DNA of 64,000 nt from contig JAFWKJ010000018.1 in NCBI GenBank assembly GCA_017511375.1, positions 1,312-65,311 on the forward strand, in the 5' to 3' direction. Positions 6,456 to 63,637 of the stretch are shown here, in pieces. The translations under genes and the position numbers were made by a program. The notes under the pieces are model-generated. The model had not been told where the DNA came from. It made no database searches and saw nothing but the letters and a program-made list of their open reading frames with translations. This DNA is from Bacilli bacterium. GTDB taxonomy: Bacteria > Bacillota_I > Bacilli_A > RF39 > UBA660. Position 1 is the first letter of the stretch; every line of letters begins with the position of its first letter.

Positions 6456-7301
6456 ATGAAAAAAATAATGTTTCTAATTCTATTCTTTGGTGTATTATGT
6501 TGTAGTATTCCAGTATTGGCAGCCCCATTTTATTATTATCCAAAAGAGTATCAGATTACGATTCATAATATGGATAAAGAATCAATTGATTCTATTGAAC
6601 TGATTTATGATACAGGGTGTGGATTTAATTATACAGATAATCCAGAATGGCGTTATTGGATAGAGGGTACTGATTTTGGATATCAATATAAAGATTCTAA
6701 AGATGCGGATGTTATTCCTAAACTTTCTACCAAACAAATTGATGAAATTGCTAGATTATATCTAAATAGTGATACTGCAAGTAAAATAAATGGTTATTGG
6801 ATAGATGGAAAAGAAATACCAGGTATGCACGGTTCTATCAATAAATTTACAATTAATGAAAACACTAAAATTTATTATGATAATCAGGATATTGTTGTTT
6901 CTTATTCTGCTGATGAAGACAATTTTGCTTATATTAACAAAATGGTTCTTAGAATTCAAATGAAGGATCAAGATGTTGTTTATTCTCCTACGATTTCTTC
7001 TCAATATATTTATATTGTGGATGAATATAGTACAGAAGAGGATATAAAAATAGCAGAAGAGGTTGAGAATACAACAGCTGTATTTGAAATTGATTATTCT
7101 AAAGATAAGAATCAATTGGATGTGAAAGAAATAGAAGCACCTGAGAAAAAAGAAGATGATCTCCATAAAAAGGATCAGATGGGTGATTCCAAAAATGTTT
7201 CTTTGTTGATAGGAGAAGGAGTGCTTATTCTAGGGGTTTTGTTTGGCATCATTTTCTTATTAGTTTGTAAAAGAAGAAAGCCTGAGAAGGTTGTAAAATA
7301 A
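6456..7301 (+). CDS. Hypothetical surface protein (signal peptide, C-terminal TM anchor)
   Basis: 281 aa ORF with AAGGAG RBS, signal peptide, terminal hydrophobic helix and basic tail. Confidence 0.75.
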   Translation: MKKIMFLILFFGVLCCSIPVLAAPFYYYPKEYQITIHNMDKESIDSIELIYDTGCGFNYTDNPEWRYWIEGTDFGYQYKDSKDADVIPKLSTKQIDEIARLYLNSDTASKINGYWIDGKEIPGMHGSINKFTINENTKIYYDNQDIVVSYSADEDNFAYINKMVLRIQMKDQDVVYSPTISSQYIYIVDEYSTEEDIKIAEEVENTTAVFEIDYSKDKNQLDVKEIEAPEKKEDDLHKKDQMGDSKNVSLLIGEGVLILGVLFGIIFLLVCKRRKPEKVVK

Positions 7302-13759: not shown

Positions 13760-13817
13760 GGGTCTTTTTTTTTATATGGTTTTATGATAAGGTTATTATT
13801 GTCAGGGGATGAATTGT

Positions 13818-16061
13818 ATGCGTAATTATGTAGAGTTGGTTCTAAAGAAGGAAAAGAAGGCAATTTCTTATGATAAGATTGTTCGCCGTATTGAGATGTT
13901 AAGATCAGAAGAACTTCAAAAAGAAATTTCTTTAACAGAAGAAGAAAAAATGAACGTGTTGGATATTTTAGAAAAAGGTGTTTCTAATTTAGATATTTAT
14001 AAGACTCCACATTTTAACTATATATTGTTCTCAAAAACGTCGTTTCGAAAAGGACGTTTTTATGGTGATCGAACAGGAGGAGGAAAAGTTTCTGTAACGA
14101 CTACTTATGTGGATCGAGATGGAAAACTTGTTGTAAACGAGGAAAAGATAGATATTGCGAAGGATAAATCTAATGGGGCCATTGATGGGGATTTTGTTTT
14201 AATTGATACGTGTGGGCAACCACAGGTTTTACGTGTTTTAGATCGTAACTTGGAATTTGTACCGGGAGAAGTATATCATGTGGGAGGAACTTGTTTTGTA
14301 AAACCTGTGGATAAGAAAAAGCAGAGTATTATGATTACGATTCCGGGGGATTATATTGATGGGTATCGAGTGGCAGTTCAATTGAAGGAACAGACGGCAC
14401 CTAACTTTTATATTGCAGAGGTTGTAAAAGAATTTAATCACAAAGATGATCCGGATGAATCTATCTTGTGGGAAGCTTTTAAACATGGCGTTGATAATGA
14501 CTTTAGTCAAGAATCACTTGCTCAATTAGAATATATTCCAGGGGAACTTCGAGATGTGGATCGTATTGGAAGAGAGGATTTAACCGGTTGGGAAATCTTT
14601 ACAATTGATGGGGTAGATACAAAAGATATGGATGATGCGATTAGTTGTAGAATGAACAAAAAAGGAAATTATGAATTAGGGGTTCATATCACGGATATTG
14701 CATCGATTGTGCCTGAGAATTCTCCTTTAGATAAAGATGCTTTTAGAAAAGGAAATAGTTTTTATCTTGGTGGAACGGTACTTCCGATGTTTCCTCATAA
14801 AATATCAAATGGAATAGGATCTCTTAATCCGAATGTAGATCGTATGACGTTATCTTGTATTATGGAAATTAATCCTGAAGGGGAAATCGTTAATTACAGG
14901 ATTAGTCCTACGATTATTCGGTCTCGTTTAAAAATGACTTATGATAAAGTGAATCAAATCCTAAAAGAGGGAGTAGTTGATTCCGAGTATGAGCCTTATG
15001 AAGACACATTAATAAATATGAAAAAACTTAGTCTGATTTTGCGCAAGAAAAGACTTTTGGCAGGAGCAGCTGAATTTGATAGGCCTGAAATGATAGAAAT
15101 AAGAGATGATACACATAAAGTTGTTGGATTTGGTTTAAGAATTCAAGATGTTGGAGAAAACCTTATCGAAGAGTTTATGCTTGCGGCAAATAGAACGGTA
15201 GATAAAGACTTGTCTAAGAGAGGAATTCCTTTCTTACATAGAGTCCATGATTCTCCTAATGAAGAAAGAATTCAAGAGTTTTTAAATCTTTTGGATGCGA
15301 TTAATCTTCCTTTTACGGAATATTCTTCCGAGGAACTTGCTACCAATAAAATAGCTTATCAACATTTGTTGGAACATATTTCAAAGGGAGGTCGCTTGAA
15401 AGACTTATTAACGACACAAGCAATTCGATGCATGTCACGTGCTAAATATAGTCCGGAGAACTTAGGACACTATGGACTAGCCACGCCTTATTATTGCCAT
15501 TTTACTTCTCCTGTTAGAAGATATGCGGATTTAACAGATCAGCGTATTATTTGGGAATGCTTATTTAAGCGCCATAACCTTGAAAAGAGTTGTCAGAAAT
15601 GGGAGAAACAGTTACCTGAGATTGCAGAGCAGACTTCTCATCAAGAAAGGGTTTCTGATGATACAGAGCGCGATGTTCTTCGTATGTTATGTGCAGAGTA
15701 TATGCAAGATCATGTGGGGGAAGAGTTTGAGGCTACAGTAACTTGTGTTTCTTCTGAATGCTTAACGGTAGAACTTGAGAATATGATGGAGGGAACTGTA
15801 AGAACGCATGATTTGAAGGGATCCTATATTTATTGTCCAGAGAGTTATTCTTTAGTTTCTTTAGATGGTGAAGAAAATTATTTCTTAGGGGATCATTTAA
15901 AACTACGCTTAAAATATGCCGATAAGGAATCAAAACATATCGAATTTGAGATTGTTGAAAAGTTACATGAAACACAAGTGCAAAACTCTGATCGTATCAA
16001 TTATAATGCCAAAGTTAAAGCAAAAAGAGAGAATGCAAATAGAGCAATGAAGAGAAGATAG
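13818..16061 (+). CDS. Second ribonuclease R/II family exoribonuclease
   Basis: TIDGVDTKDMDDA and HFTSPVRRYAD motifs, S1 domain; divergent N-terminus. Track start is 13809. Confidence 0.92.
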   Translation: MRNYVELVLKKEKKAISYDKIVRRIEMLRSEELQKEISLTEEEKMNVLDILEKGVSNLDIYKTPHFNYILFSKTSFRKGRFYGDRTGGGKVSVTTTYVDRDGKLVVNEEKIDIAKDKSNGAIDGDFVLIDTCGQPQVLRVLDRNLEFVPGEVYHVGGTCFVKPVDKKKQSIMITIPGDYIDGYRVAVQLKEQTAPNFYIAEVVKEFNHKDDPDESILWEAFKHGVDNDFSQESLAQLEYIPGELRDVDRIGREDLTGWEIFTIDGVDTKDMDDAISCRMNKKGNYELGVHITDIASIVPENSPLDKDAFRKGNSFYLGGTVLPMFPHKISNGIGSLNPNVDRMTLSCIMEINPEGEIVNYRISPTIIRSRLKMTYDKVNQILKEGVVDSEYEPYEDTLINMKKLSLILRKKRLLAGAAEFDRPEMIEIRDDTHKVVGFGLRIQDVGENLIEEFMLAANRTVDKDLSKRGIPFLHRVHDSPNEERIQEFLNLLDAINLPFTEYSSEELATNKIAYQHLLEHISKGGRLKDLLTTQAIRCMSRAKYSPENLGHYGLATPYYCHFTSPVRRYADLTDQRIIWECLFKRHNLEKSCQKWEKQLPEIAEQTSHQERVSDDTERDVLRMLCAEYMQDHVGEEFEATVTCVSSECLTVELENMMEGTVRTHDLKGSYIYCPESYSLVSLDGEENYFLGDHLKLRLKYADKESKHIEFEIVEKLHETQVQNSDRINYNAKVKAKRENANRAMKRR

Positions 16062-52486: not shown

Positions 52487-53686
52487 ATGAAGTTTTTATG
52501 TGTGAATGCAGGTAGTAGTTCCTTAAAATTTCAATTATTTGAAATGCCTGAAGAAAAAGTGTTAATAAGTGGATATATTGAGAAAATTGGTCTAGAAGAC
52601 AGTTTTTGGAATACGAAAGTAAATGGAGAAAAAGTAAAGAAAGCTAAGTATTTAAAGAATCATAAAGAAGCAGTTCAAGTATTATTAGATGAGTTAATTG
52701 AACATAATGCTGTTAAGTCTTTAGATGAGATTAAAGGTGTAGGACATAGAGTTTTACATGGAGGAGAAAAATATAGTGATTCTATTATTATTACGGATGA
52801 AGTCATTGAAGATATTCGTGAGTTGACGAAATTAGGACCTCTTCATCATCCAGGTAATTTGGCTGGTATTGAAGCTTTAAAAGAAGTTTTACCTGATGTT
52901 CCAATGGTTGCTGTTTATGATACAGCTTTCCATCAAACGATGCCAGTTAAGAATTATATGTATCCAGTTCCTTATGAATGGTATACCAGATATGGAGTAC
53001 GTAAGTATGGATTCCATGGAACTAGTCATAAATATATTACGACTGTCATGAAGGAAAAATTAGGAAAAGAAGATGTGAATTTAATTATTTGTCATATTGG
53101 TAGTGGAGCTAGTATTAGTGCGATTAAAGAGGGTAAATGTTATGATACTACGATGGGTCTTACGCCACTTGATGGTTTAATGATGGGTACTCGTTGTGGG
53201 GCAATTGATCCTTCTATCTTAGAATATGTTTGTAAAGAATCTGATGCAACGATTAGTGATATTACCAATGATTTAAATAAGAAGAGTGGTCTTCTTGGTA
53301 TTTCAGGATTTAGTGATGCTAGAGATGTAGAAGATGCTGTTGCTAAAGGGGATGAGAGAGCTATTCTTGCTAATACAATGTATAATGATAGAGTGGCTAA
53401 ATATATTGCGGATTATTTCATTGAACTTGAAGGAAAAGTAGATGCCATTGTCTTCACGGCTGGTGTAGGAGAAAATGGTGTTTTAGCAAGAGCGGATATT
53501 CTTGCAAGACTTGCTCCACTTGGTATTGTTGTAGATGACAAAGCAAATGGAGAAATTGCTAGTTTTAAAGAAAAACATGAAGGTATTATTACAACTAAGA
53601 AATCTAAAATACCTGTTTGGGTTGTTCCAACAAATGAAGAATTAATGATTATTAAAGATACATACGAAATCGTATGTGGAAAATAA
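52487..53686 (+). CDS. ackA: Acetate kinase (copy 1)
   Basis: NAGSSSLK, GHRVLHGG, DTAFH, YGFHGTSH and TNEE motifs. Confidence 0.95.
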   Translation: MKFLCVNAGSSSLKFQLFEMPEEKVLISGYIEKIGLEDSFWNTKVNGEKVKKAKYLKNHKEAVQVLLDELIEHNAVKSLDEIKGVGHRVLHGGEKYSDSIIITDEVIEDIRELTKLGPLHHPGNLAGIEALKEVLPDVPMVAVYDTAFHQTMPVKNYMYPVPYEWYTRYGVRKYGFHGTSHKYITTVMKEKLGKEDVNLIICHIGSGASISAIKEGKCYDTTMGLTPLDGLMMGTRCGAIDPSILEYVCKESDATISDITNDLNKKSGLLGISGFSDARDVEDAVAKGDERAILANTMYNDRVAKYIADYFIELEGKVDAIVFTAGVGENGVLARADILARLAPLGIVVDDKANGEIASFKEKHEGIITTKKSKIPVWVVPTNEELMIIKDTYEIVCGK

Positions 53687-53789: not shown

Positions 53790-54806
53790 ATGAATATACT
53801 AGTTATAGCAGCCATAATTCCGGTTTTTGCTTTATGTTCTTTTATCTATTATAAAGATAAGAATAAAGAACCTCCGAAATTGTTGGCGCTTATATTTTTT
53901 TTGGGATTTGTTTCTGTTTTTCCTATCTTGATATGTGAATCCTTATTTAATTATTTTTTTCCATTAAAAGAAGCGCATGGTCTAGTTCAAGTGTTTTTAA
54001 CGGTATTGTTTGGGGTTGCTTTATTTGAAGAGGGCTTTAAATGGTTAATATCTAAATATGTGGGATATCATAATAAAGAATTTGATGAAATCTTTGATAT
54101 TATTGTTTATTCTGTATTTGCTTCTCTAGGTTTCGCTTGTTTTGAAAATGTCATGTATGTATTGAGTAATGGATTGGGAAATGCTTTTTTAAGAGCTATC
54201 CTTGCGGTTCCAGGACATACTTGTTTTGCTATTACGATGGGATACTTTTTATCGAAAGCGAAAGTGGGTCAAATCAATGGGAATCATGAAATCTATGTGA
54301 GAAATACGATATTGAGTATTGTAGTTCCTATGATTTTACATACTTTTTATGATAGTTTGTTGTTGGTTGTGAATAATAACATTTTGGAGATGTTTCCTTT
54401 TTATATCTTTTTCATCATCATGATTATTGTTTGTTTTATAACCGTTGATAATACGGCAAGAATTCAACAAAACTTATCTGCTAATATAGCGAGTGGAAGT
54501 ATTGTTCAAAATGATCAGGGTGTTTTGTATTACAACTATCAAAGTACGCCTGTACCTGTTGTTCCTGTTAGCAATGTGAGATATGTGGGGCAACCTACGA
54601 TGGTTAATCCAATTCCAACCTATCCTCCAGCAAATGCGGTTTCTCCGGTTGCGCAAGCAGCTGTTCCGAATTCTAATACTTTGCAGCCTTCGGAGGCTAA
54701 TCCACAAACGAATCCATTGTTTAAAGAATTGTCTTTTTGTCCTATTTGTGGAAAACCTGCTAAAGGGTTAAACTATTGTGGAAGATGTGGTTTCAAGTTA
54801 AAGTAG
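53790..54806 (+). CDS. PrsW family intramembrane metalloprotease with P-rich linker and C-terminal zinc ribbon
   Basis: D...EP, EE..K, LGFA..EN..Y, PGH and LH..YD motifs; CPICG...CGRCG. Confidence 0.9.
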   Translation: MNILVIAAIIPVFALCSFIYYKDKNKEPPKLLALIFFLGFVSVFPILICESLFNYFFPLKEAHGLVQVFLTVLFGVALFEEGFKWLISKYVGYHNKEFDEIFDIIVYSVFASLGFACFENVMYVLSNGLGNAFLRAILAVPGHTCFAITMGYFLSKAKVGQINGNHEIYVRNTILSIVVPMILHTFYDSLLLVVNNNILEMFPFYIFFIIMIIVCFITVDNTARIQQNLSANIASGSIVQNDQGVLYYNYQSTPVPVVPVSNVRYVGQPTMVNPIPTYPPANAVSPVAQAAVPNSNTLQPSEANPQTNPLFKELSFCPICGKPAKGLNYCGRCGFKLK

Positions 54807-54875: not shown

Positions 54876-56060
54876 ATGAAAATAATCTCTATTAATGCAG
54901 GAAGTAGTTCTTTAAAATTTAGTTTGTTTGAGATGACAGACGAAAGTGTATTGATATCTGGAGCTTTCGAAAGAATTGGTTCTGATGGTAGTTGTTATAC
55001 CATTAAATATAATGGTCAAAAGATAACGGAAGAGGTTTCTTTAGAAACACATACAGATGCTGTTAAGATTTTATTAGATAAATTAGTTGCTTTGGAAGTG
55101 ATTCGTTCTTTAGATGAAATCAAAGGGGTAGGACATAGAATCGTACATGGGGGAAGTAAGTATTCAGAATCTGTTTTTGTGACAAATCAAGTAATGGATG
55201 ATATTGAAGAGTGCAAAGATTTCGCTCCCTTACATAATCCAGCTCATTTATTAGGAATTAAGGCATTTAGAGAAGTATTACCTGATACGCCTATGGTTGT
55301 TGTATTTGATACTGCTTTCCATCAAACGATGGATGAGGTTACTTATTTATATCCGGTTCCTTATCATTGGTGTGGAGATTATGGTGTTCGTAAATATGGA
55401 GCTCATGGGACAAGCCATCGCTACATTACAAATGTTGTAAAAGACATCCTTCAAAAGGAGGATTTCAAATTAATTAGTTGTCATATTGGAAATGGTGGTT
55501 CTATTACAGCTATTAAAAATATGAAATGTGTTGATACGAGTATGGGATTTACTCCTTTAGCAGGTATTATGATGGGTACTCGTTCGGGAGATGTTGATCC
55601 TTCTATTATTCCTTATGTGATGGAAAAAGAAGGAAAGAATGCAAGTGAAGTCCTTGATGATTTAAATAAACGTAGTGGTGTATTTGGAATGAGTGAATAT
55701 AGCCACGATTTAAGAGATATCGTTTCAAAATGCGAGGGAAATGATCCGAAAGCAATTTTGGCAAAAGATAAATATGTTCGTAGAATTGTAGATTATATTT
55801 CTCAATACTATGTGTTATTGGAAGGCTGTGACTTAATTGTCTTCACGGCAGGAGTAGGGGAGAACAACTCTGTAATTCGTAAGGAGGTTTGTGAAAAGCT
55901 TGCTTGCTTAGGAGTTGAGATTGATTTAGAGAAAAATGCTGTACGAGGAGAAACTCAAAAAATTAGTACTGATCAATCTAAAATAGATGTTTATGTAATT
56001 CCTACGGATGAGGAATTGATGATTGCAAGAGATACTCTTGAACTAATAAAGAATAGATAG
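54876..56060 (+). CDS. ackA: Acetate kinase (copy 2)
   Basis: NAGSSSLK, GHRIVHGG, APLHN, YGAHGTSH and TDEE motifs. Confidence 0.95.
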   Translation: MKIISINAGSSSLKFSLFEMTDESVLISGAFERIGSDGSCYTIKYNGQKITEEVSLETHTDAVKILLDKLVALEVIRSLDEIKGVGHRIVHGGSKYSESVFVTNQVMDDIEECKDFAPLHNPAHLLGIKAFREVLPDTPMVVVFDTAFHQTMDEVTYLYPVPYHWCGDYGVRKYGAHGTSHRYITNVVKDILQKEDFKLISCHIGNGGSITAIKNMKCVDTSMGFTPLAGIMMGTRSGDVDPSIIPYVMEKEGKNASEVLDDLNKRSGVFGMSEYSHDLRDIVSKCEGNDPKAILAKDKYVRRIVDYISQYYVLLEGCDLIVFTAGVGENNSVIRKEVCEKLACLGVEIDLEKNAVRGETQKISTDQSKIDVYVIPTDEELMIARDTLELIKNR

Positions 56061-57024: not shown

Positions 57025-57612
57025 ATGGTTATTAAGGAAGCTAATTTAGATGTTATTGCTACTCGTAGAAGTCAATATCCTGATGATGGGAAACCAGAAT
57101 TCTTATTAGTAGGTAGAAGTAATGTTGGTAAAAGTAGTTTTATTAATACAATTTTGTCTAGGCATAATTTAGCTTATATTTCCTCAAAGCCTGGAAAGAC
57201 ACAAACTTTAAATTTTTATGCAGTGAATAATCAATTCTATTTGATTGATGTTCCTGGTTATGGATATGCTAGTACAGACAAAAAAACACAAACAAAGTTT
57301 GGCTTGATGATTGAAGAATATTTAGAGAAGAGAACTGAATTAAAAAGAGTTTTCTTACTTATTGATTTTCGTCATGGACCTACGGAAGATGATATGTTGA
57401 TGTATAATTTCTTAAAATATTATAATCTTCCTGTTACGGTGATTGCGACTAAGGCAGATAAAGTAGGGGGAAGTAAAAAAGAAAAGAATTTGAAGGATAT
57501 TCTTCGTGCGATGGATTTAGCTGTGGGAGATGATTTTGTAGTCTTCTCTAGTGTTACTAAATTAGGAGTAAAAGAGGTTCTAAAAAAGATTGAAGATATT
57601 ATTATGGAATAG
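57025..57612 (+). CDS. engB: Ribosome biogenesis GTPase YsxC/EngB
   Basis: GRSNVGKSS, PGKT, DVPGYGYA and TKADK motifs. Confidence 0.97.
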   Translation: MVIKEANLDVIATRRSQYPDDGKPEFLLVGRSNVGKSSFINTILSRHNLAYISSKPGKTQTLNFYAVNNQFYLIDVPGYGYASTDKKTQTKFGLMIEEYLEKRTELKRVFLLIDFRHGPTEDDMLMYNFLKYYNLPVTVIATKADKVGGSKKEKNLKDILRAMDLAVGDDFVVFSSVTKLGVKEVLKKIEDIIME

Positions 57613-57629
57613 TATCTTTATGTGAGAAG

Positions 57630-58346
57630 GTGATTTTCTTGAGCTCGAGAAAAAAATTATTGTATATTTTTGGTTTTATTATATTAGATGCTTTTTTATT
57701 AGTAGGGTTTCTTGTGATTCGAGATGCTACTTCTATTAATAAATTAAAGAAAGAAATTAATGAATTAACAAAATTAGATGTTACAAGTGATCGCTTTAAT
57801 CGTAGTATTCAAACTTCTGGTAAATATGCCGTTGTGGAAGAATCCATTAAAGATTATCTAGATGGGTATGCGATTGAAGTACAAGACCTTGGAACCCTTA
57901 TTCATGATCCAAAACTAACGAAGGTTTTATCCTATGAGAATTATGAAAAAGATGGACCAGAGTTTAATGAATCGATTGCTTATTTGGAGGAATCTAGAGA
58001 ACTTTTTAATGATAAGATTGATGGGTTATTATATGATTTAGAAGAAGAACAGATTATGAATCATATTCATGAACGTATTGATGATTCATACTATGTAGGG
58101 TTATATCAAGACTTGATGTTTGATGATAGTATGAAGGGGGAACTTGATCAATCTAAGGAATTGTTTCAAAGAACAAGAACGAAAATGAATAATATCTATG
58201 ATAGTAGTTTAGAGGTGTTAAATTTCTTAAAAACTTATCAAGGTTCTTGGGAATTAGATAATGGTACCATTAAATTTCAAAATGATGAGTTGTTGGAGTA
58301 CTATAATTCTTTAGTTTCAAAAGTAGAAGTTAGAAAAGATGAGTAA
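57630..58346 (+). CDS. Hypothetical membrane-anchored helical protein
   Basis: N-terminal TM, 238 aa ORF; ends in the bidirectional terminator AAAAGATGA-GTAA-TCATCTTTT. Confidence 0.7.
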   Translation: MIFLSSRKKLLYIFGFIILDAFLLVGFLVIRDATSINKLKKEINELTKLDVTSDRFNRSIQTSGKYAVVEESIKDYLDGYAIEVQDLGTLIHDPKLTKVLSYENYEKDGPEFNESIAYLEESRELFNDKIDGLLYDLEEEQIMNHIHERIDDSYYVGLYQDLMFDDSMKGELDQSKELFQRTRTKMNNIYDSSLEVLNFLKTYQGSWELDNGTIKFQNDELLEYYNSLVSKVEVRKDE

Positions 58347-58355
58347 TCATCTTTT

Positions 58356-58434
58356 TTATATTACAATGGTAATTACATTATTACTTCCTTTATTAATAAC
58401 TCTTGTGAGTGTATTATGTAGTTTGAATCTTATG
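58356..58434 (-). repeat. Displaced copy of the spoIVA 3' end (direct repeat, copy A)
   Basis: 70/79 nt identical to 59702-59780; reads IRFKLHNTLTRVINKGSNNVITIVI* in frame. Confidence 0.95.
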
Positions 58435-58517
58435 AAATGGTAAATGTTCATAAAAGAAATATTATTTCGGGCAATCAAATCTAAAAAAATTTGATATAAT
58501 TAGTATAGGTGGTAGGT

Positions 58518-59222
58518 ATGAAAAAAACTTTGGAAAATAAAATATTAGAGTTTAATACCTATCTATCTAGAATAAGAATAGAATTACCTAAAGAGTATAA
58601 AATTATTAATCCTTTTAATGGATCAAACAAAGAAAAAATAAATGATATTACCAAAAAGTTTTATCATAAGTTTTATAATGATAATAAAAAAAGAATTCTA
58701 ATTCTAGGCAGTTCTCCAGCAAGGAGAGGAACTGCTGCTACAGGAATACCTTTTGAAGATAATGAGCACTTATATAAAACTACAGGAATATCTATAGATG
58801 ATTTTTATATAAACAAATCGTCTTCTAATTTTTTATATGAAGTTATAGATAAATATGGTGGAAGCGATAGATTTTATTCTATATTCTACATGAATTTTAT
58901 TTGCCCTTTAGGGATAGTAAGAACTAGTGATAAGGGTAATGAAGTTAATTGTAATTACTATGAGAATAAAGAATTACTAAAAGCATTATATCCATTTATT
59001 GTAGAGTCATTAAAAAAACAAATAGAATTAGGAATAGATACTTCAATAGTGTATTGTATTGGTAGTGGAGAGAATTATAAATTTTTAAATGATTTAAATA
59101 ATAAATTGCATCTATTTAAAAAAATAATCCCATTAGAGCATCCAAGGTATATAATGCAATATAATTCAAATAAAAAAGAAGAATATATAAAAAAATATAT
59201 AGAATTATTAAAGGAGGAATAA
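58518..59222 (+). CDS. DUF4918/SMUG2-like uracil-DNA glycosylase superfamily protein
   Basis: NPF, FY.KFYND...R.LILG..P.R.G...TGIPF.D, CPLG, N.NYY and LEHPRYIMQY motifs. Confidence 0.88.
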   Translation: MKKTLENKILEFNTYLSRIRIELPKEYKIINPFNGSNKEKINDITKKFYHKFYNDNKKRILILGSSPARRGTAATGIPFEDNEHLYKTTGISIDDFYINKSSSNFLYEVIDKYGGSDRFYSIFYMNFICPLGIVRTSDKGNEVNCNYYENKELLKALYPFIVESLKKQIELGIDTSIVYCIGSGENYKFLNDLNNKLHLFKKIIPLEHPRYIMQYNSNKKEEYIKKYIELLKEE

Positions 59223-59225
59223 TTT

Positions 59226-59666
59226 ATGGAAAAACAATATGAATTTTTTATAGCAGGTAAATTTAGAAATAAAGATAATATTTTGAAGATTTGTGATATT
59301 TTTGATAAATATAATATTTCTTATTATTGCTTTTTAAAAAGTGAAAATTCAATGATGAATTATGGTGATAAAAATCAAACACAAGAAGAGAAAATGAAAG
59401 AGTTTGAAAGTCTAGGATTAAAAAGCGATGCTGTTTTAAGAATATTTAATGAGGATATAGAAGCGCAAAGAAATTCAAATAATTTTTTATTGGTTTTACC
59501 AGCAGGTAAATCAGGACATATAGAAGCTGGAATATCTTATGGTATGAATAGAAAATGTTATGCGATAGGAGAATATGATGCGACAGATTCACTATATAAC
59601 ATTTTTGAAAAAATATTTGAAGATAATAGTCAATTAGAAGAATTTTTAAAAAATTATAATAACTAA
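59226..59666 (+). CDS. Nucleoside 2'-deoxyribosyltransferase/DNPH1-like N-glycosidase
   Basis: FFIAG, F..D..A...S, and LPAGKSGHIEAG.SYG with catalytic Glu; AAGGAGG RBS, 3 nt after the upstream stop. Confidence 0.75.
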   Translation: MEKQYEFFIAGKFRNKDNILKICDIFDKYNISYYCFLKSENSMMNYGDKNQTQEEKMKEFESLGLKSDAVLRIFNEDIEAQRNSNNFLLVLPAGKSGHIEAGISYGMNRKCYAIGEYDATDSLYNIFEKIFEDNSQLEEFLKNYNN

Positions 59667-59678
59667 AATGTATACAAG

Positions 59679-59703
59679 AAAAAAGAAGCATGGCTTCTTT
59701 TTT
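59679..59703. terminator. Bidirectional terminator between the cassette and spoIVA
   Basis: AAAAAAGAAGC-ATG-GCTTCTTTTTT. Confidence 0.75.
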
Positions 59704-61177
59704 ATATTACTAAAGTAATTACGTTGTTACTTCCTTTATTGATTACTTTTGTGAGTGTATTTTGTAGTTTGAATCTTATGTTTTCTGGCATAAGATTTAT
59801 TTTGGATTGGATTCCTTCTTGTACGATGGAATCTAGACTTCTTCCAAATATTTCACTTTTCCAGATTTCCTTTGGATTTTTATCTTGATCTTTTGTGATA
59901 TAATCGATTAGCTCTTTGGATTGAACTTCACTTCCAATGATTGGTTCAAAGGTAGATTCAACGTCTACTCTTATCATATGAATAGATGGGGCTACAGCTT
60001 TTAGTTTAATTCCGTATCTTGATCCTTGTTTAATTACTTCTGGACTATCTAATTTCATATCTTCTATAGAAGGGGTAGCGATTCCATAACCTGTTTGTTT
60101 TACCATATTTAGAGCATATTTGATGGAGTCATATTCTTTTTTCGCAATACTATATTCTTGGAATAGGGATAATAAATCTACTTTTGTTTTTATATCCTTA
60201 TTGACTAATTCTTTTAATGTTTCTTGGTAGAGTTTTTCAGGAGCTGATAAATTGATTGTGATGCTTCCTGTGGATGTGTCTACTTCTGATAAATAACATT
60301 TTTTAATATATTCATTTGTTTGAAATGCTTCGGTTATTTTTTCTACATCTCGTATTTTATCAATTTCTATGATACTTTCTTTCATAGATTGAATGTAGGC
60401 TTTTTTGACTTTATTATTTGGCTCTAATATAGATATCCATTCTGGCATATTTACTTTTATTTCAAGTACTGGAAATTCATATAATGCTTCCTTTAAAATA
60501 TGATACATATCTTGTTCTGTCATAGATTCAATACTAATAGGTAATACAGGGGTCTGATATTTTTCTTCTAATTCTATTTTTAATTGTTCTGTTTCTGGAA
60601 GACTTGGATGTGTTGTATTTAAAATAATAATAAATGGCTTTCCTAAAGTTTTTAATTCTTCTACTACACGATTTTCTGCCTCTTCATAGTCTTTTCTTTC
60701 AAAGTCTCCAATAGAGCCATCTGTTGTGACTACGATTCCTATGGTAGAGTGTTCTTTAATGACTTTTTCTGTTCCTATTTCGGCGGCTTCTATAAAGGGG
60801 ATTTCTTCATTATACCAAGGGGTTTTCACCATACGTGGACCATTTTCATCTGTTGCGCCTATGGCGTTTTCTATCATATAACCCACGCAGTCTATTAGTT
60901 TTATATTACAAGTAAAATCATCTACTTTTATTTTTGCGGCATTGGTTGGGATAAATTTTGGTTCTGTGGTCATAATGGTTTTTCCTGATGCACTTTGTGG
61001 AATCTCATCTAAAGTTCTTTTTTGTTCATAAACGCTTTCCATATTCGGAATAATAAGTGTTTCAACCATTCTTTTAATAAAAGTTGATTTTCCTGTTCTA
61101 ACGGCACCTACTACTCCTAGATAAATATCTCCGCCACTTCTTTTGGCGATATTTTTTATGATGTCTTTTTTTTCCAT
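59702..61177 (-). CDS. spoIVA: Stage IV sporulation protein A
   Basis: GDIYLGVVGAVRTGKSTFIKR, IMTTEPKF, DCVGY, HSTIG.V.TTDGS and APSIH motifs; upstream sigmaE-like CATATAGT. Confidence 0.98.
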   Translation of the reverse strand: MEKKDIIKNIAKRSGGDIYLGVVGAVRTGKSTFIKRMVETLIIPNMESVYEQKRTLDEIPQSASGKTIMTTEPKFIPTNAAKIKVDDFTCNIKLIDCVGYMIENAIGATDENGPRMVKTPWYNEEIPFIEAAEIGTEKVIKEHSTIGIVVTTDGSIGDFERKDYEEAENRVVEELKTLGKPFIIILNTTHPSLPETEQLKIELEEKYQTPVLPISIESMTEQDMYHILKEALYEFPVLEIKVNMPEWISILEPNNKVKKAYIQSMKESIIEIDKIRDVEKITEAFQTNEYIKKCYLSEVDTSTGSITINLSAPEKLYQETLKELVNKDIKTKVDLLSLFQEYSIAKKEYDSIKYALNMVKQTGYGIATPSIEDMKLDSPEVIKQGSRYGIKLKAVAPSIHMIRVDVESTFEPIIGSEVQSKELIDYITKDQDKNPKEIWKSEIFGRSLDSIVQEGIQSKINLMPENIRFKLQNTLTKVINKGSNNVITLVI

Positions 61178-62197: not shown

Positions 62198-63637
62198 TTA
62201 ACCTCTCTTTGGAGCAATTTGTTTCATGATTATCTCAATATGACAATTATTTGATTCTAATTCTTTAATGATATCAATATCTTCTGGAGCGATTTCTTCA
62301 TAGATTTCTTTGTTTACCATAATTCTATGAGGGTTTTCTACATAGAAACCTAATTTAGATATCATATCGTGAGAAACAAATAATTGACCATTATTATTAC
62401 ATACAATTACTTTATATTCTGCCTTTTCTGTGAGATATACATTGGCGATGATTGGTTCTTTTGCATAGGATTGAATTTCCTCATAATTAATTTCTCTACA
62501 TGGTTTATTCAAGATAGTAATTGTTGCATCTTCTCTTGAAGTTGGTATGTATAAGTTTGCTGTTTTCGTATCTCGATAAACGATTGTTGGTTTATCAATG
62601 ACCTCTTTTATGATGTCGTCGTCGCCTAAAACTTTTTTGACTATGTCTTCATCATTTAGAACAGATTTTATGATGTCGTCGTCTCCTAGAACTTTTCTAA
62701 TTGTTTCTTCATCGTTTAAAACACTTTTAATAATATCATCATCCCCTAATACAGGCATAATTCTGTCTATATAAGGTTTAATATTATCTTTTACTTTGCT
62801 GTCATCATAAGTTTTTGCGTGAGCAAATAAATTCATTCTTTTTTGGATATCATATAATTTCTGAATGGTTTCTTCTATATCTTTTTTATCTGGAAATTCT
62901 TTCATACGGGCATAAATGTTTGTGCTTGGTCTCATTAAGAATTCTACACTACGATAATGAAGAGCTTCTTCTGCGTCTTTTAGTTGGTTTTCTGTTATGG
63001 AATAACAGTTTTTGTTATCTATAATCTTTGGTTCTCCTTCGATTTCCAAATCTGAGTTTTTTAATAAATCATATATATCTCTTGTGACGTAGCTTTTATT
63101 TGATTCATGATCTTTATATAGTACAAAAAGATATTCTGCTGGTTTCATTTCATCTGGCAATTCTATTTCTACGTAGTTTCTTTTTAGTCTTACTTTTTCT
63201 CTAGCAGATAGGTTTTCTATTTCTTCTAAGTTATCTTCTGTTACTTGGCAGAAAGTTGTACCATTTATCATTCTCTTTGATTGAGGAGTTATTCCATATT
63301 TTGTACAGGTATTATCTGAAATGTATAAGATTCGATTATGATTAATATCTACATATACAGTAAAAGATAAAACTAATTGTAAATCAAAGATCTTAATAAT
63401 GTTTGGAATAAGGACTTTAGAGCTATTTTGTGTTTCCATTTTTATGGTTTCTAAATCGGCTTCATTTACTTGATAACAAGTTTGATCCTTTATTTGTTTA
63501 ATATCATTTTGATTTCCTACATGGTATTGTTTACATAATTCTTCACTAATATACAATCCTGTAGCTTGCTTATAAACATTAAAATATACCCTGGTTTGAT
63601 CCATAAAGCTCTCTTCCCCTTTTACTTCTTCTTTCAT
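62198..63637 (-). CDS. Hypothetical protein with five repeated domains and a 10/20-aa tandem repeat
   Basis: 479 aa ORF, GGAG RBS; recurring VY.D....LYI...I....CY.V.E..L..I units. Confidence 0.75.
   Translation of the reverse strand: MKEEVKGEESFMDQTRVYFNVYKQATGLYISEELCKQYHVGNQNDIKQIKDQTCYQVNEADLETIKMETQNSSKVLIPNIIKIFDLQLVLSFTVYVDINHNRILYISDNTCTKYGITPQSKRMINGTTFCQVTEDNLEEIENLSAREKVRLKRNYVEIELPDEMKPAEYLFVLYKDHESNKSYVTRDIYDLLKNSDLEIEGEPKIIDNKNCYSITENQLKDAEEALHYRSVEFLMRPSTNIYARMKEFPDKKDIEETIQKLYDIQKRMNLFAHAKTYDDSKVKDNIKPYIDRIMPVLGDDDIIKSVLNDEETIRKVLGDDDIIKSVLNDEDIVKKVLGDDDIIKEVIDKPTIVYRDTKTANLYIPTSREDATITILNKPCREINYEEIQSYAKEPIIANVYLTEKAEYKVIVCNNNGQLFVSHDMISKLGFYVENPHRIMVNKEIYEEIAPEDIDIIKELESNNCHIEIIMKQIAPKRG
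62606..62752. repeat. Intragenic tandem repeat, 60-bp period (about 2.5 copies)
   Basis: TTTTATGATGTCGTCGTC at 62606 and 62666, diverged copy near 62726; encodes VLGDDDIIKSVLNDE. Confidence 0.85.

Follow-up and report, generated by a model that had tools for sequence, protein, structure and literature searches.

In an uncultured gut Bacilli bacterium (Bacillota_I; Bacilli_A; RF39; UBA660) the 3' end of the sporulation gene spoIVA is present twice, and two accessory genes have been inserted between the two copies. With a rough probability of 0.5, we attribute this arrangement to a one-off, old import from a congeneric donor, which would have been anchored by homology within spoIVA and closed by an illegitimate join, as in 'C-terminal displacement'. 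The stretch analysed, hereafter the window, comprises 64,000 nt of contig JAFWKJ010000018.1 (assembly GCA_017511375.1, positions 1,312 to 65,311, forward strand). The genome is a 1.2-Mb metagenome-assembled genome (MAG), 70% complete and distributed over 18 contigs. The locus is organised in the order 238-aa gene, copy A, leader, SMUG2-like gene, nucleoside 2-deoxyribosyltransferase (NDT)-like gene, hairpin, copy B and spoIVA body, and the spoIVA reading frame is uninterrupted and of full length (Table 1).

Table 1. Features of the spoIVA locus, in window positions
Feature	Position	Strand	Evidence
238-aa gene with hydrophobic N-terminal stretch, convergent neighbour of spoIVA	57630..58346	+	ORF; orthologues adjoin spoIVA in 24 loci
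Bidirectional terminator hairpin, ancestral junction	58331..58358	.	folds at -11.9 (+) and -7.7 kcal/mol (-), z -5.9 and -5.2
Copy A, orphan spoIVA 3' end, 25 codons + stop (...IRFKLHNTLTRVINKGSNNVITIVI*)	58356..58434	-	repeat search and alignment; without the 5' part of the gene
Leader preceding the cargo genes, non-coding, at the insert's left end	58435..58517	+	sequence
Cargo gene 1, uracil-DNA glycosylase superfamily, SMUG2-like; likely start ATG 58518	58509..59222	+	PF03167, PDB 5h0j/5h0k
Cargo gene 2, 146-aa nucleoside 2-deoxyribosyltransferase-like	59226..59666	+	phrog_12607; Atlas cluster names
Second bidirectional terminator hairpin, GAAGC-atg-GCTTC in A-run/T-run	59679..59703	.	folds at -10.6 and -10.0 kcal/mol, z about -5
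Copy B, working final 25 codons + stop of spoIVA (...IRFKLQNTLTKVINKGSNNVITLVI*)	59702..59780	-	repeat search and alignment; continuous with the full-length gene
spoIVA, intact, 491 aa	59702..61177	-	TIGR02836, 681.6 bits, model 1-492/492; Pfam SpoIVA_ATPase, middle and C domains all present

A direct-repeat search returned a single family, at 58350-58434 and 59696-59780 (85 nt, 76/85 identical, 89%, spacing 1346), which consists of the last 79 nt of spoIVA and 6 nt past its stop codon. In a pairwise alignment the similarity ended sharply at 58434/59780 and faded upstream of 58350/59696, and the inner edge of the repeat was formed by 18 identical nt (58417-58434 and 59763-59780). Self-BLAST of the 1.2-Mb assembly listed this pair as the only one for the stretch. 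No further copy of the region was found elsewhere in the genome, nor any clear case of a second cassette of the same kind, the self-BLAST showing paralogue and tandem repeats. Over the 79 coding nt the copies differ at 9 positions: five are single synonymous third-position changes, and the other four, which affect three codons, lead to H/Q, R/K and I/L, the last by two changes. These are exactly the numbers reported in the first-pass annotation of this DNA. Such a spectrum, with five synonymous changes and conservative replacements among 9 differences in 79 nt, is expected if the copies diverged within working genes of separate lineages.

The first-pass annotation had also described both copies as in frame with their own stop and terminator, and the hairpins were shown by folding. 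Each copy is followed by an A-run, a hairpin and a T-run, with folding energies in the spoIVA sense of -7.7 (copy A) and -10.0 kcal/mol (copy B) and z around -5 relative to shuffled sequences; a simple terminator scan flagged no terminators. Between the stop codons of copy A and of the convergent 238-aa gene lie 9 nt; in G017 and G014, the two nearest genomes, the corresponding gap is 8 nt. The loop of the hairpin at this junction contains the stop codon of the 238-aa gene, and the hairpin extends as far as the stop of copy A; its sequence is identical in G363 and nearly so in G360, and its architecture is that of G017 and G014. The hairpin standing between cargo gene 2 and copy B resembles the one on the spoIVA side in G366, and G365 and G366 share 87% identity with the block of about 121 nt formed by this hairpin and copy B (59679/80-59800). 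The 238-aa protein matched no Pfam family above the cut-off, its best match (81% aa) being in metagenome contig L143.

Copy A is probably the native tail, because it lies 9 nt from the neighbouring gene and inside that gene's conserved terminator hairpin; copy B would then have come with the cargo, which is the more economical reading. Comparison of the 79 nt with 26 relatives gave no consistent winner (60-70 matching positions for copy A, 58-68 for copy B), and a sliding-window comparison was noisy. Each copy has one residue unseen among these relatives, namely H in copy A, where 26/26 have Q, and L in copy B, whereas the K/R site is a standing polymorphism (16 K, 10 R). The proposal of the first-pass annotation that copy A is probably native and copy B incoming is favoured by the spacing and hairpin of the junction, which match those of the relatives, but not by the similarity of the tails themselves, each with its private residue.

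The 1346 nt between the repeats contain two ORFs only. The first product matched PF03167 (E 1.1e-15, 58.3 bits against a cut-off of 24.3) and PDB 5h0j/5h0k (E 5.7e-60 over residues 7-235), and its homologues align from residue 4-5. On the basis of full-length similarity to a solved member and of its UDG domain, the predicted protein belongs to the SMUG2-like branch of the uracil-DNA glycosylase (UDG) superfamily; we take 5h0j to be SMUG2, the PDB entry itself reading 'uncharacterized protein'. The 146-aa product of the second gene matched phrog_12607 (E 2e-4) and no Pfam or NCBIfam family. Its nearest Atlas clusters are named nucleoside deoxyribosyltransferase, with a score of 0.94 that serves as a lead only, and its AlphaFold model (mean pLDDT 48) was left out of the assignment. 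Neither cargo protein had a match in the PADLOC defence library. A promoter and terminator scan called no promoter and no terminator for the cargo; in particular, the leader (58435..58517) contained no consensus promoter, and it had no DNA match in 46 congeners. The G+C content of the cargo is 0.20-0.25, versus 0.28-0.35 for the flanks.

Populations of the same species were observed through assembled Logan contigs, which drop rare variants, and runs without contig cover over some parts of the stretch were not counted as absence. Contigs of four runs from four studies (X2, X5, X7 and X8) span the left junction, from the neighbouring gene through copy A into the glycosylase gene, and those of X2 and X8 also span the right junction, from the NDT gene through copy B into spoIVA. 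Each differs from the window at 0-6 positions, and the difference within the species is about 0.4% (6 of 1363 nt in X8). The suspicion that two strains had been merged in the MAG, raised in the first-pass annotation and nourished by a genome only 70% complete and in 18 contigs, is ruled out for practical purposes by these independent contigs. The filled site was present in 4/4 same-species populations, and no contig in these four skipped the 1346 nt, as an excision joint or an empty site would. The arrangement appears fixed in the species, and these contigs give no indication of present movement. Half of what the first-pass annotation had named as speaking against its own reading, namely both copies with fixed cargo in all relatives, thus holds within the species.

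DNA searches of 46 congeners revealed neither a second match to the spoIVA end nor the glycosylase gene. BLAST of both copies found one place per locus in 32 loci and in 8 further ones, and although 75 of 401 sampled genomes of the family bear the tail motif, the present genome alone has two real tails. An apparent second tail in G236 was an overlap of contig ends (77 nt, 100% identical). The two neighbours were found together in 24 loci; their stop codons are 2-123 nt apart in 18 of these and are separated by unrelated cargo of 0.8-4.0 kb in 4, including ORFs of 569 and 259 aa and, in one block of 4 kb, five ORFs. In the closest relative, L143, yet another ORF lies behind spoIVA. The space behind spoIVA is a variable spot in the genus, and since some relatives hold cargo there, a donor with cargo directly behind its spoIVA is plausible. 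These comparisons support an insertion particular to this lineage, most relatives having nothing at the site. Examination of the region downstream of spoIVA, suggested in the first-pass annotation, yielded empty sites and alternative cargo in congeners, but no empty site in same-species populations.

Among 300 further genomes sampled within the order, the glycosylase protein was detected in 17, with 72% aa for the best match. Neither the NDT gene nor spoIVA was found near it in the 14 order loci analysed (±1.5 kb) or in 80 further loci (up to ±4 kb), where the sole extra match was GTPase-like (L076). Homologues of the NDT protein (68-71% aa) occur in five congeners at other loci and in unrelated contexts. 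No searched genome carried glycosylase and NDT genes together, or either next to spoIVA, and of the 5 loci that the neighbour protein retrieved from metagenomes, none came from the same species (best 84% DNA).

We infer the direction of the exchange, the donor and the mechanism of the import as follows. The donor would be another species of the same genus, with cargo in the variable spot behind its spoIVA, and the incoming DNA would have carried, in order, the leader, the SMUG2-like gene, the NDT-like gene, the terminator and the 3' part of the donor spoIVA. In two steps, one end of this fragment would have paired homologously inside spoIVA, and the other would have been joined illegitimately inside the recipient gene, 79 nt before its stop codon, by homology-facilitated illegitimate recombination (HFIR). 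As a result spoIVA would end in the donor tail, copy B, followed by the two cargo genes, and the last 79 nt of the recipient gene, copy A, would remain next to the neighbouring gene, where they had lain before, as a stub without function. The arrangement would later have become fixed in the species. The 3' 475 nt of spoIVA are closest to G365 (86.1% and 88.6%) and the 5' 1000 nt to G017 (83.2% and 79.8%); for the flank, too, G017 is the nearest genome. Max-chi-square gave p 0.037 for G365 versus G017 and 0.003 for G365 versus G014, with 2/7 pairs at p<0.05, uncorrected. This sign of a mosaic is weak, and it could also stem from recombination, or from variation in rate, among the relatives. Several observations count against an import: the searches yielded neither a donor nor a cassette-free conspecific strain, the private residues H (copy A) and L (copy B) make neither copy clearly more 'native', and a site-specific core would account equally well for the 18 nt that are identical where the repeat has its inner edge.

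The first-pass annotation had interpreted the locus as a captured cassette and likened it to integrative and excisable elements. Direct repeats duplicating the 3' end of the target gene, as attL and attR would, are indeed present, but the insert holds only two metabolic genes, no recombinase was found among the 52 ORFs scanned in the 64-kb window, and the 1346 nt leave no room for one. We found no support for an active element of this kind, nor for a recurrent attachment site in spoIVA, as the layout was seen in 0/46 congeners and in no other of the 401 sampled family genomes; on present evidence spoIVA is not added to the genes that host excisable elements. A relic of site-specific integration is a different matter, and we hold it to be unlikely. 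In that case the last 79 nt of spoIVA would have lain in the attP of an integrative element, of which the insert is either the whole, the element being small, or one end. The crossover would have fallen within the 18-nt identical stretch, and the integrase gene would have been deleted later, or the integrase would act from elsewhere. The geometry is that of elements which restore a 3' end, with the displaced tail at the far end and the element-supplied tail on the gene; the homology edge is sharp and adjoins the 18 identical nt, and the site is empty in other species. Two tyrosine recombinases (C5 and C16, open frames of 324 and 309 aa) are encoded elsewhere in the genome, but this is the size of housekeeping Xer proteins, and the assembly, 70% complete, yielded no serine recombinase. 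The lack of a local recombinase, of recurrence at the site, and of an excision joint or empty site in the contigs of the four populations also speaks against a relic.

Insertion with long target duplication, reportedly described by Nobusato et al. in 2000, appears to us about as doubtful. The cargo would have entered at or behind the spoIVA stop and duplicated an 85-nt target, and the copies would have diverged in place with copy A drifting; the H of copy A, where all 26 relatives have Q, could then be drift in a dead copy. The criteria of PMC2853133 (Furuta et al. 2010) call for inserts <20 kb that lack mobility genes and are flanked by a direct repeat >30 bp aligning with just one target in a related genome, and the present insert has all these features. 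However, its repeats are 89% alike, against 93-100% in the tables of that paper and a within-species difference here of about 0.4%; 5/9 differences are synonymous and the working copy B has a unique I-to-L change, a pattern unlike that of a frozen copy beside a drifting one; and the cases given there carry restriction-modification genes. The repeats are thus less alike than duplication would predict; age could blur this, so that the model appears weakened. We consider it very improbable that the cassette is a recombinase-free mobile unit that docks on spoIVA-tail homology and is still lost or exchanged between the 85-nt repeats, or that, alternatively or in addition, a peptide made from copy A mimics the SpoIVA C-terminus. 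A 40-codon frame does run over copy A (58356-58478, minus strand), and if such a cassette were mobile, its cargo (glycosylase and NDT-like enzyme) and three C-terminal residues of SpoIVA would be toggled together.

The import reading leaves the knowledge of sporulation unchanged. It would provide a clean, independently confirmed case of accessory genes entering uncultured, small-genome gut Bacilli without mobile-element machinery, the incoming DNA making use of homology to an essential-type gene, replacing the end of that gene with a working copy and leaving the old end as a scar.

Several known systems resemble this locus in part. Integrase-mediated islands and prophages insert into a gene or tRNA at its 3' end, for which they bring a substitute. 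They share with the present insert the duplication of the target 3' end as a direct repeat, the intact gene and the displaced end at the far side, but here there is no integrase, no sign of excision and no recurrence, and the insert measures 1.3 kb only. Among inserts with long target duplication, two H. influenzae cases in PMC2853133 have a 46-bp repeat overlapping a gene 3' end by 15 bp and 2 bp; they are likewise small, free of mobility genes and bracketed by a repeat that is single in related genomes, and differ in the closer identity of their repeats and in their cargo. Foreign DNA is also associated with mother-cell sporulation genes in the form of intervening elements: skin in sigK, SPbeta in spsM, vfbin in spoVFB and vrin in spoVR (PMC4191935), gin in gerE (PMC5595907) and yin in yabG (PMC10747680). 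These interrupt the coding sequence, bring their own recombinase and have to be excised for the gene to be rebuilt, whereas here spoIVA is intact without excision and no recombinase was found. A further likeness is with C-terminal displacement, for which PMC5361080 reports 3' ends orphaned at rhs, cdiA and T6SS effector loci and proposes HFIR (Jackson et al. 2009, cited there). Unlike those loci, ours concerns a housekeeping sporulation ATPase and not a polymorphic toxin, its tails encode nearly the same peptide, its cargo is not an immunity gene, and it reflects a single event without an array. In both, the gene body is followed by a new 3' end, new cargo and then the displaced, start-less old 3' fragment, there is no recombinase, and only one side of the incoming DNA has homology to the gene.

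The duplication of the spoIVA tail claimed by the first-pass annotation is real, as found by alignment and by self-BLAST. The last 79 nucleotides of the intact gene (copy B, its working end) are present again as an orphan 3' end (copy A), and with the 6 nucleotides past the stop codon the repeat covers 85 nucleotides, with 76/85 identical and a start-to-start spacing of 1346. In the pairwise alignment the likeness ends abruptly at 58434/59780. The nine differences are exactly those listed earlier, five synonymous third-position changes and the replacements H/Q, R/K and I/L (copy A/copy B). Behind each copy stands an A-run/hairpin/T-run structure, whose fold is much stronger than that of shuffled sequences. 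When the entire 1.2-Mb assembly was compared with itself by BLAST, no other repeat pair was listed for the spoIVA stretch, and no further copy of the region was found elsewhere in the genome. The 40-codon frame passing through copy A is probably not a gene, because no ribosome-binding site is seen ahead of it.

The genome is metagenome-assembled and 70% complete, and a chimera therefore needed to be excluded. Parts of the stretch were present in 20 public sequencing runs, 7 of which contained at least half of the sampled words. Contigs from four runs (X2, X5, X7 and X8), each from a different study, were compared with the window. They bridge the left junction (neighbour gene, copy A and glycosylase gene) in all four runs and the right junction (NDT-like gene, copy B and spoIVA) in two, so that the arrangement is present in independent samples, one of them a slightly different strain, and the assembly artefact against which the first-pass annotation had cautioned is effectively excluded. 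No joint skipping the 1346 nucleotides was among those listed in these contigs, which drop rare variants, so that excision may still take place at low frequency.

Coordinates of the features (window positions, unless a genome, contig or locus is named)
Feature	Position	Strand	Remarks
spoIVA	59702-61177	minus	intact, 491 aa; TIGR02836 681.6 bits over whole model; 3/3 Pfam SpoIVA domains
Copy B	59702-59780	minus	
Copy A	58356-58434	minus	
40-codon frame	58356-58478	minus	TTG start
Neighbour gene	57630-58346	plus	238 aa, convergent
UDG-superfamily glycosylase gene	58509-59222, likely start 58518	plus	PF03167 E 1e-15; PDB 5h0j/5h0k E 5.7e-60
NDT-like gene	59226-59666	plus	146 aa; weak NDT signals, phrog_12607 E 2e-4
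Left junction, X2 contig	57120-59075		differences 0
Left junction, X5 contig	57735-58588		differences 0
Left junction, X7 contig	57401-59650		differences 0
Left junction, X8 contig	57492-58854		differences 6
Right junction, X2 contig	59257-59855		differences 0
Right junction, X8 contig	59680-59863		differences 0
Acetate-kinase paralogues	52487-53686, 54876-56060		about 69% DNA identity over 720 nt
PrsW-family protease gene	53790-54806		
RNB-domain (RNase R/II-like) genes	737-2848, 13809-16061		DNA similarity 67-71% in parts
Direct repeat, another contig of this genome (G000:C1)	63442-63527, 65053-65139		87 nt, 83%
Direct repeat, G000:C1	63519-63646, 65382-65510		129 nt, 82%
NDT-like loci of congeners	L059 3305-4480, L060 3955-4729, L062 4047-4836		
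Contig overlap in genome G236 (L179, L178)	C24 about 6956-7032, C31 1-77		77 nt, 100% identical

The insert has room for its two genes only, and its G+C content (0.20-0.25) is below that of the flanks (0.28-0.35). The structures matched by the uracil-DNA glycosylase (UDG) superfamily protein are those of Pedobacter heparinus SMUG2, although their PDB title reads only 'uncharacterized protein'. The 146-aa protein has no Pfam or NCBIfam match, its Atlas score of 0.94 for nucleoside deoxyribosyltransferase (NDT) is a lead only, and its AlphaFold model (pLDDT 48) is too poor for use. PADLOC defence models matched neither protein. No integrase, transposase or resolvase family was detected among the 52 window ORFs scanned. 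Tyrosine recombinases are encoded twice in the assembly, both times on other contigs; their open frames, 324 and 309 aa long, have the size of housekeeping Xer proteins. A resolvase-type serine recombinase was not detected in this incomplete (70%) genome.

In congeners the NDT-like gene usually adjoins or follows a gene encoding a 111-113-aa domain, and in genome G016 this domain is fused into a 242-aa protein; the cassette is without this partner and has the glycosylase gene ahead of the NDT-like gene in its stead. The two direct repeats on G000:C1 both begin in the final 18-21 nucleotides of two different genes and enclose genes for proteins of 179 and 229 aa; they may represent a further small insert between repeats, or else a family of intergenic repeats. 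The window also holds two acetate-kinase paralogues separated by a PrsW-family protease gene, and two RNB-domain genes 13 kb apart.

The cassette DNA was searched against the genomes of every other species of the genus, 46 in number, and 34 gave a match. None of the 46 yielded a second spoIVA-end match or the glycosylase gene at the DNA level. Six carry a DNA homologue (75-78%) of the 146-aa gene, always at other loci, and the five contexts inspected are unrelated to each other and to spoIVA. Among 24 fetched loci containing both the neighbour gene and spoIVA, the stop-to-stop distance was 2-123 nt in 18, 226 or 448 nt in two and 793-4013 nt in four, the last with unrelated cargo (a 569-aa ORF; a 259-aa ORF; a 268-aa ORF accompanied by small ones; five ORFs in a 4-kb block). 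Judged by tblastn coordinates, the junction is tight in six of eight more congeners, and the other two have gaps of about 1 kb and 2.3 kb. In the closest relative found (L143, a 3.2-kb metagenome contig, 84% identical over 1956 nt) similarity ends at window position 58357, beyond which lies a different ORF, longer than 406 aa. Behind spoIVA the genus thus has a naturally variable spot.

The duplicated tail itself is unique to this species. Family-wide, the tail-peptide motif occurs in 75/401 genomes (reversed control, 0), and two genuine copies are present in this genome alone. Unrelated cargo of 0.8-4 kb lies in the same gap in several species (L023, L024, L025, L026, L158 and L162, from G030, G018, G024, G008, G366 and G362, and L143), in none of them with a duplicated tail. 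An apparent second tail in G236 was rejected as a contig-end overlap; on its contig C24 only about 93 C-terminal spoIVA codons are seen, and the overlap looks like an assembly branch point, due to strain variation, at the same spot.

Copy A had been proposed as the native end and copy B as the incoming one. The stop codons of copy A and the neighbour gene are 9 nt apart, compared with 8 nt in the nearest genomes (G017 and G014), and the hairpin at 58331..58358, whose loop holds the neighbour gene's stop codon, has exactly the same sequence in G363 and almost the same in G360; on account of this spacing and recurrence, neighbour gene, hairpin and copy A look like an undisturbed ancestral junction. 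The hairpin of copy B is of a type found behind spoIVA in G366, and over the block 59679/80-59800 the identity to both G365 and G366 is 87%. Capture by replacement of the spoIVA 3' end is probably right as history. The junction favours copy A as the native end; the 79 nucleotides themselves, with 60-70 matches to 26 relatives for copy A and 58-68 for copy B, give no winner. The H of copy A and the L of copy B are absent from all 26, and the K/R site is polymorphic among them (16 K, 10 R). This polymorphism and the mostly synonymous or conservative differences suggest, on small numbers, that both tails diverged while part of working genes.

The closest match of the 3' 475 nucleotides of spoIVA is G365 (86.1% and 88.6%); that of the 5' 1000 is G017 (83.2% and 79.8%), which is also the genome nearest in the flank. 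Maximum-chi-square analysis of seven pairs gave p values, uncorrected for multiple testing, of 0.037 for G365 versus G017 (breakpoint near 1239), 0.003 for G365 versus G014 (near 944) and 0.053-0.19 for the other five, which is only suggestive of a mosaic gene.

The most economical account, to which we give a probability of about one half, is a single import of DNA from a donor of the same genus by homology-facilitated illegitimate recombination. The donor would already have carried the same cargo behind its own spoIVA; one end of the incoming DNA would have recombined homologously within spoIVA, the other would have joined illegitimately 79 nucleotides ahead of the recipient's stop codon, and the recipient's own tail would have been left as copy A. 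The geometry would fit a relic of integrase-mediated integration, with crossover in the 18 identical nucleotides at the inner repeat edge, a reading made unlikely by the lack of an enzyme, of excision and of recurrence. An insertion with long target duplication agrees with the criteria in PMC2853133; it is nevertheless improbable, as the repeats described there are 93-100% identical and those here only 89%, with mostly synonymous differences, the within-species difference being about 0.4%.

In the literature searched, outside subscription journals, no paper was found that describes spoIVA as host to an element; the accessible part of PMC5553647 names the gene solely as a CRISPR self-target. 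Interrupted sporulation genes that have been described include sigK, spsM, spoVFB and spoVR (PMC4191935), gerE (PMC5595907) and yabG (PMC10747680). In that class the target gene is split and a recombinase is present, whereas here spoIVA is uninterrupted and, with neither recombinase, excision joint nor recurrence, the idea that it is a further sporulation gene hosting an integrative or excisable element is unsupported. A closer parallel to the proposed import lies in the T6SS and rhs loci, where Kirchberger et al. (PMC5361080) invoked homology-facilitated illegitimate recombination for orphaned 3' regions like copy A; the spoIVA-tail cassette would be a fresh example of this already known type of event.
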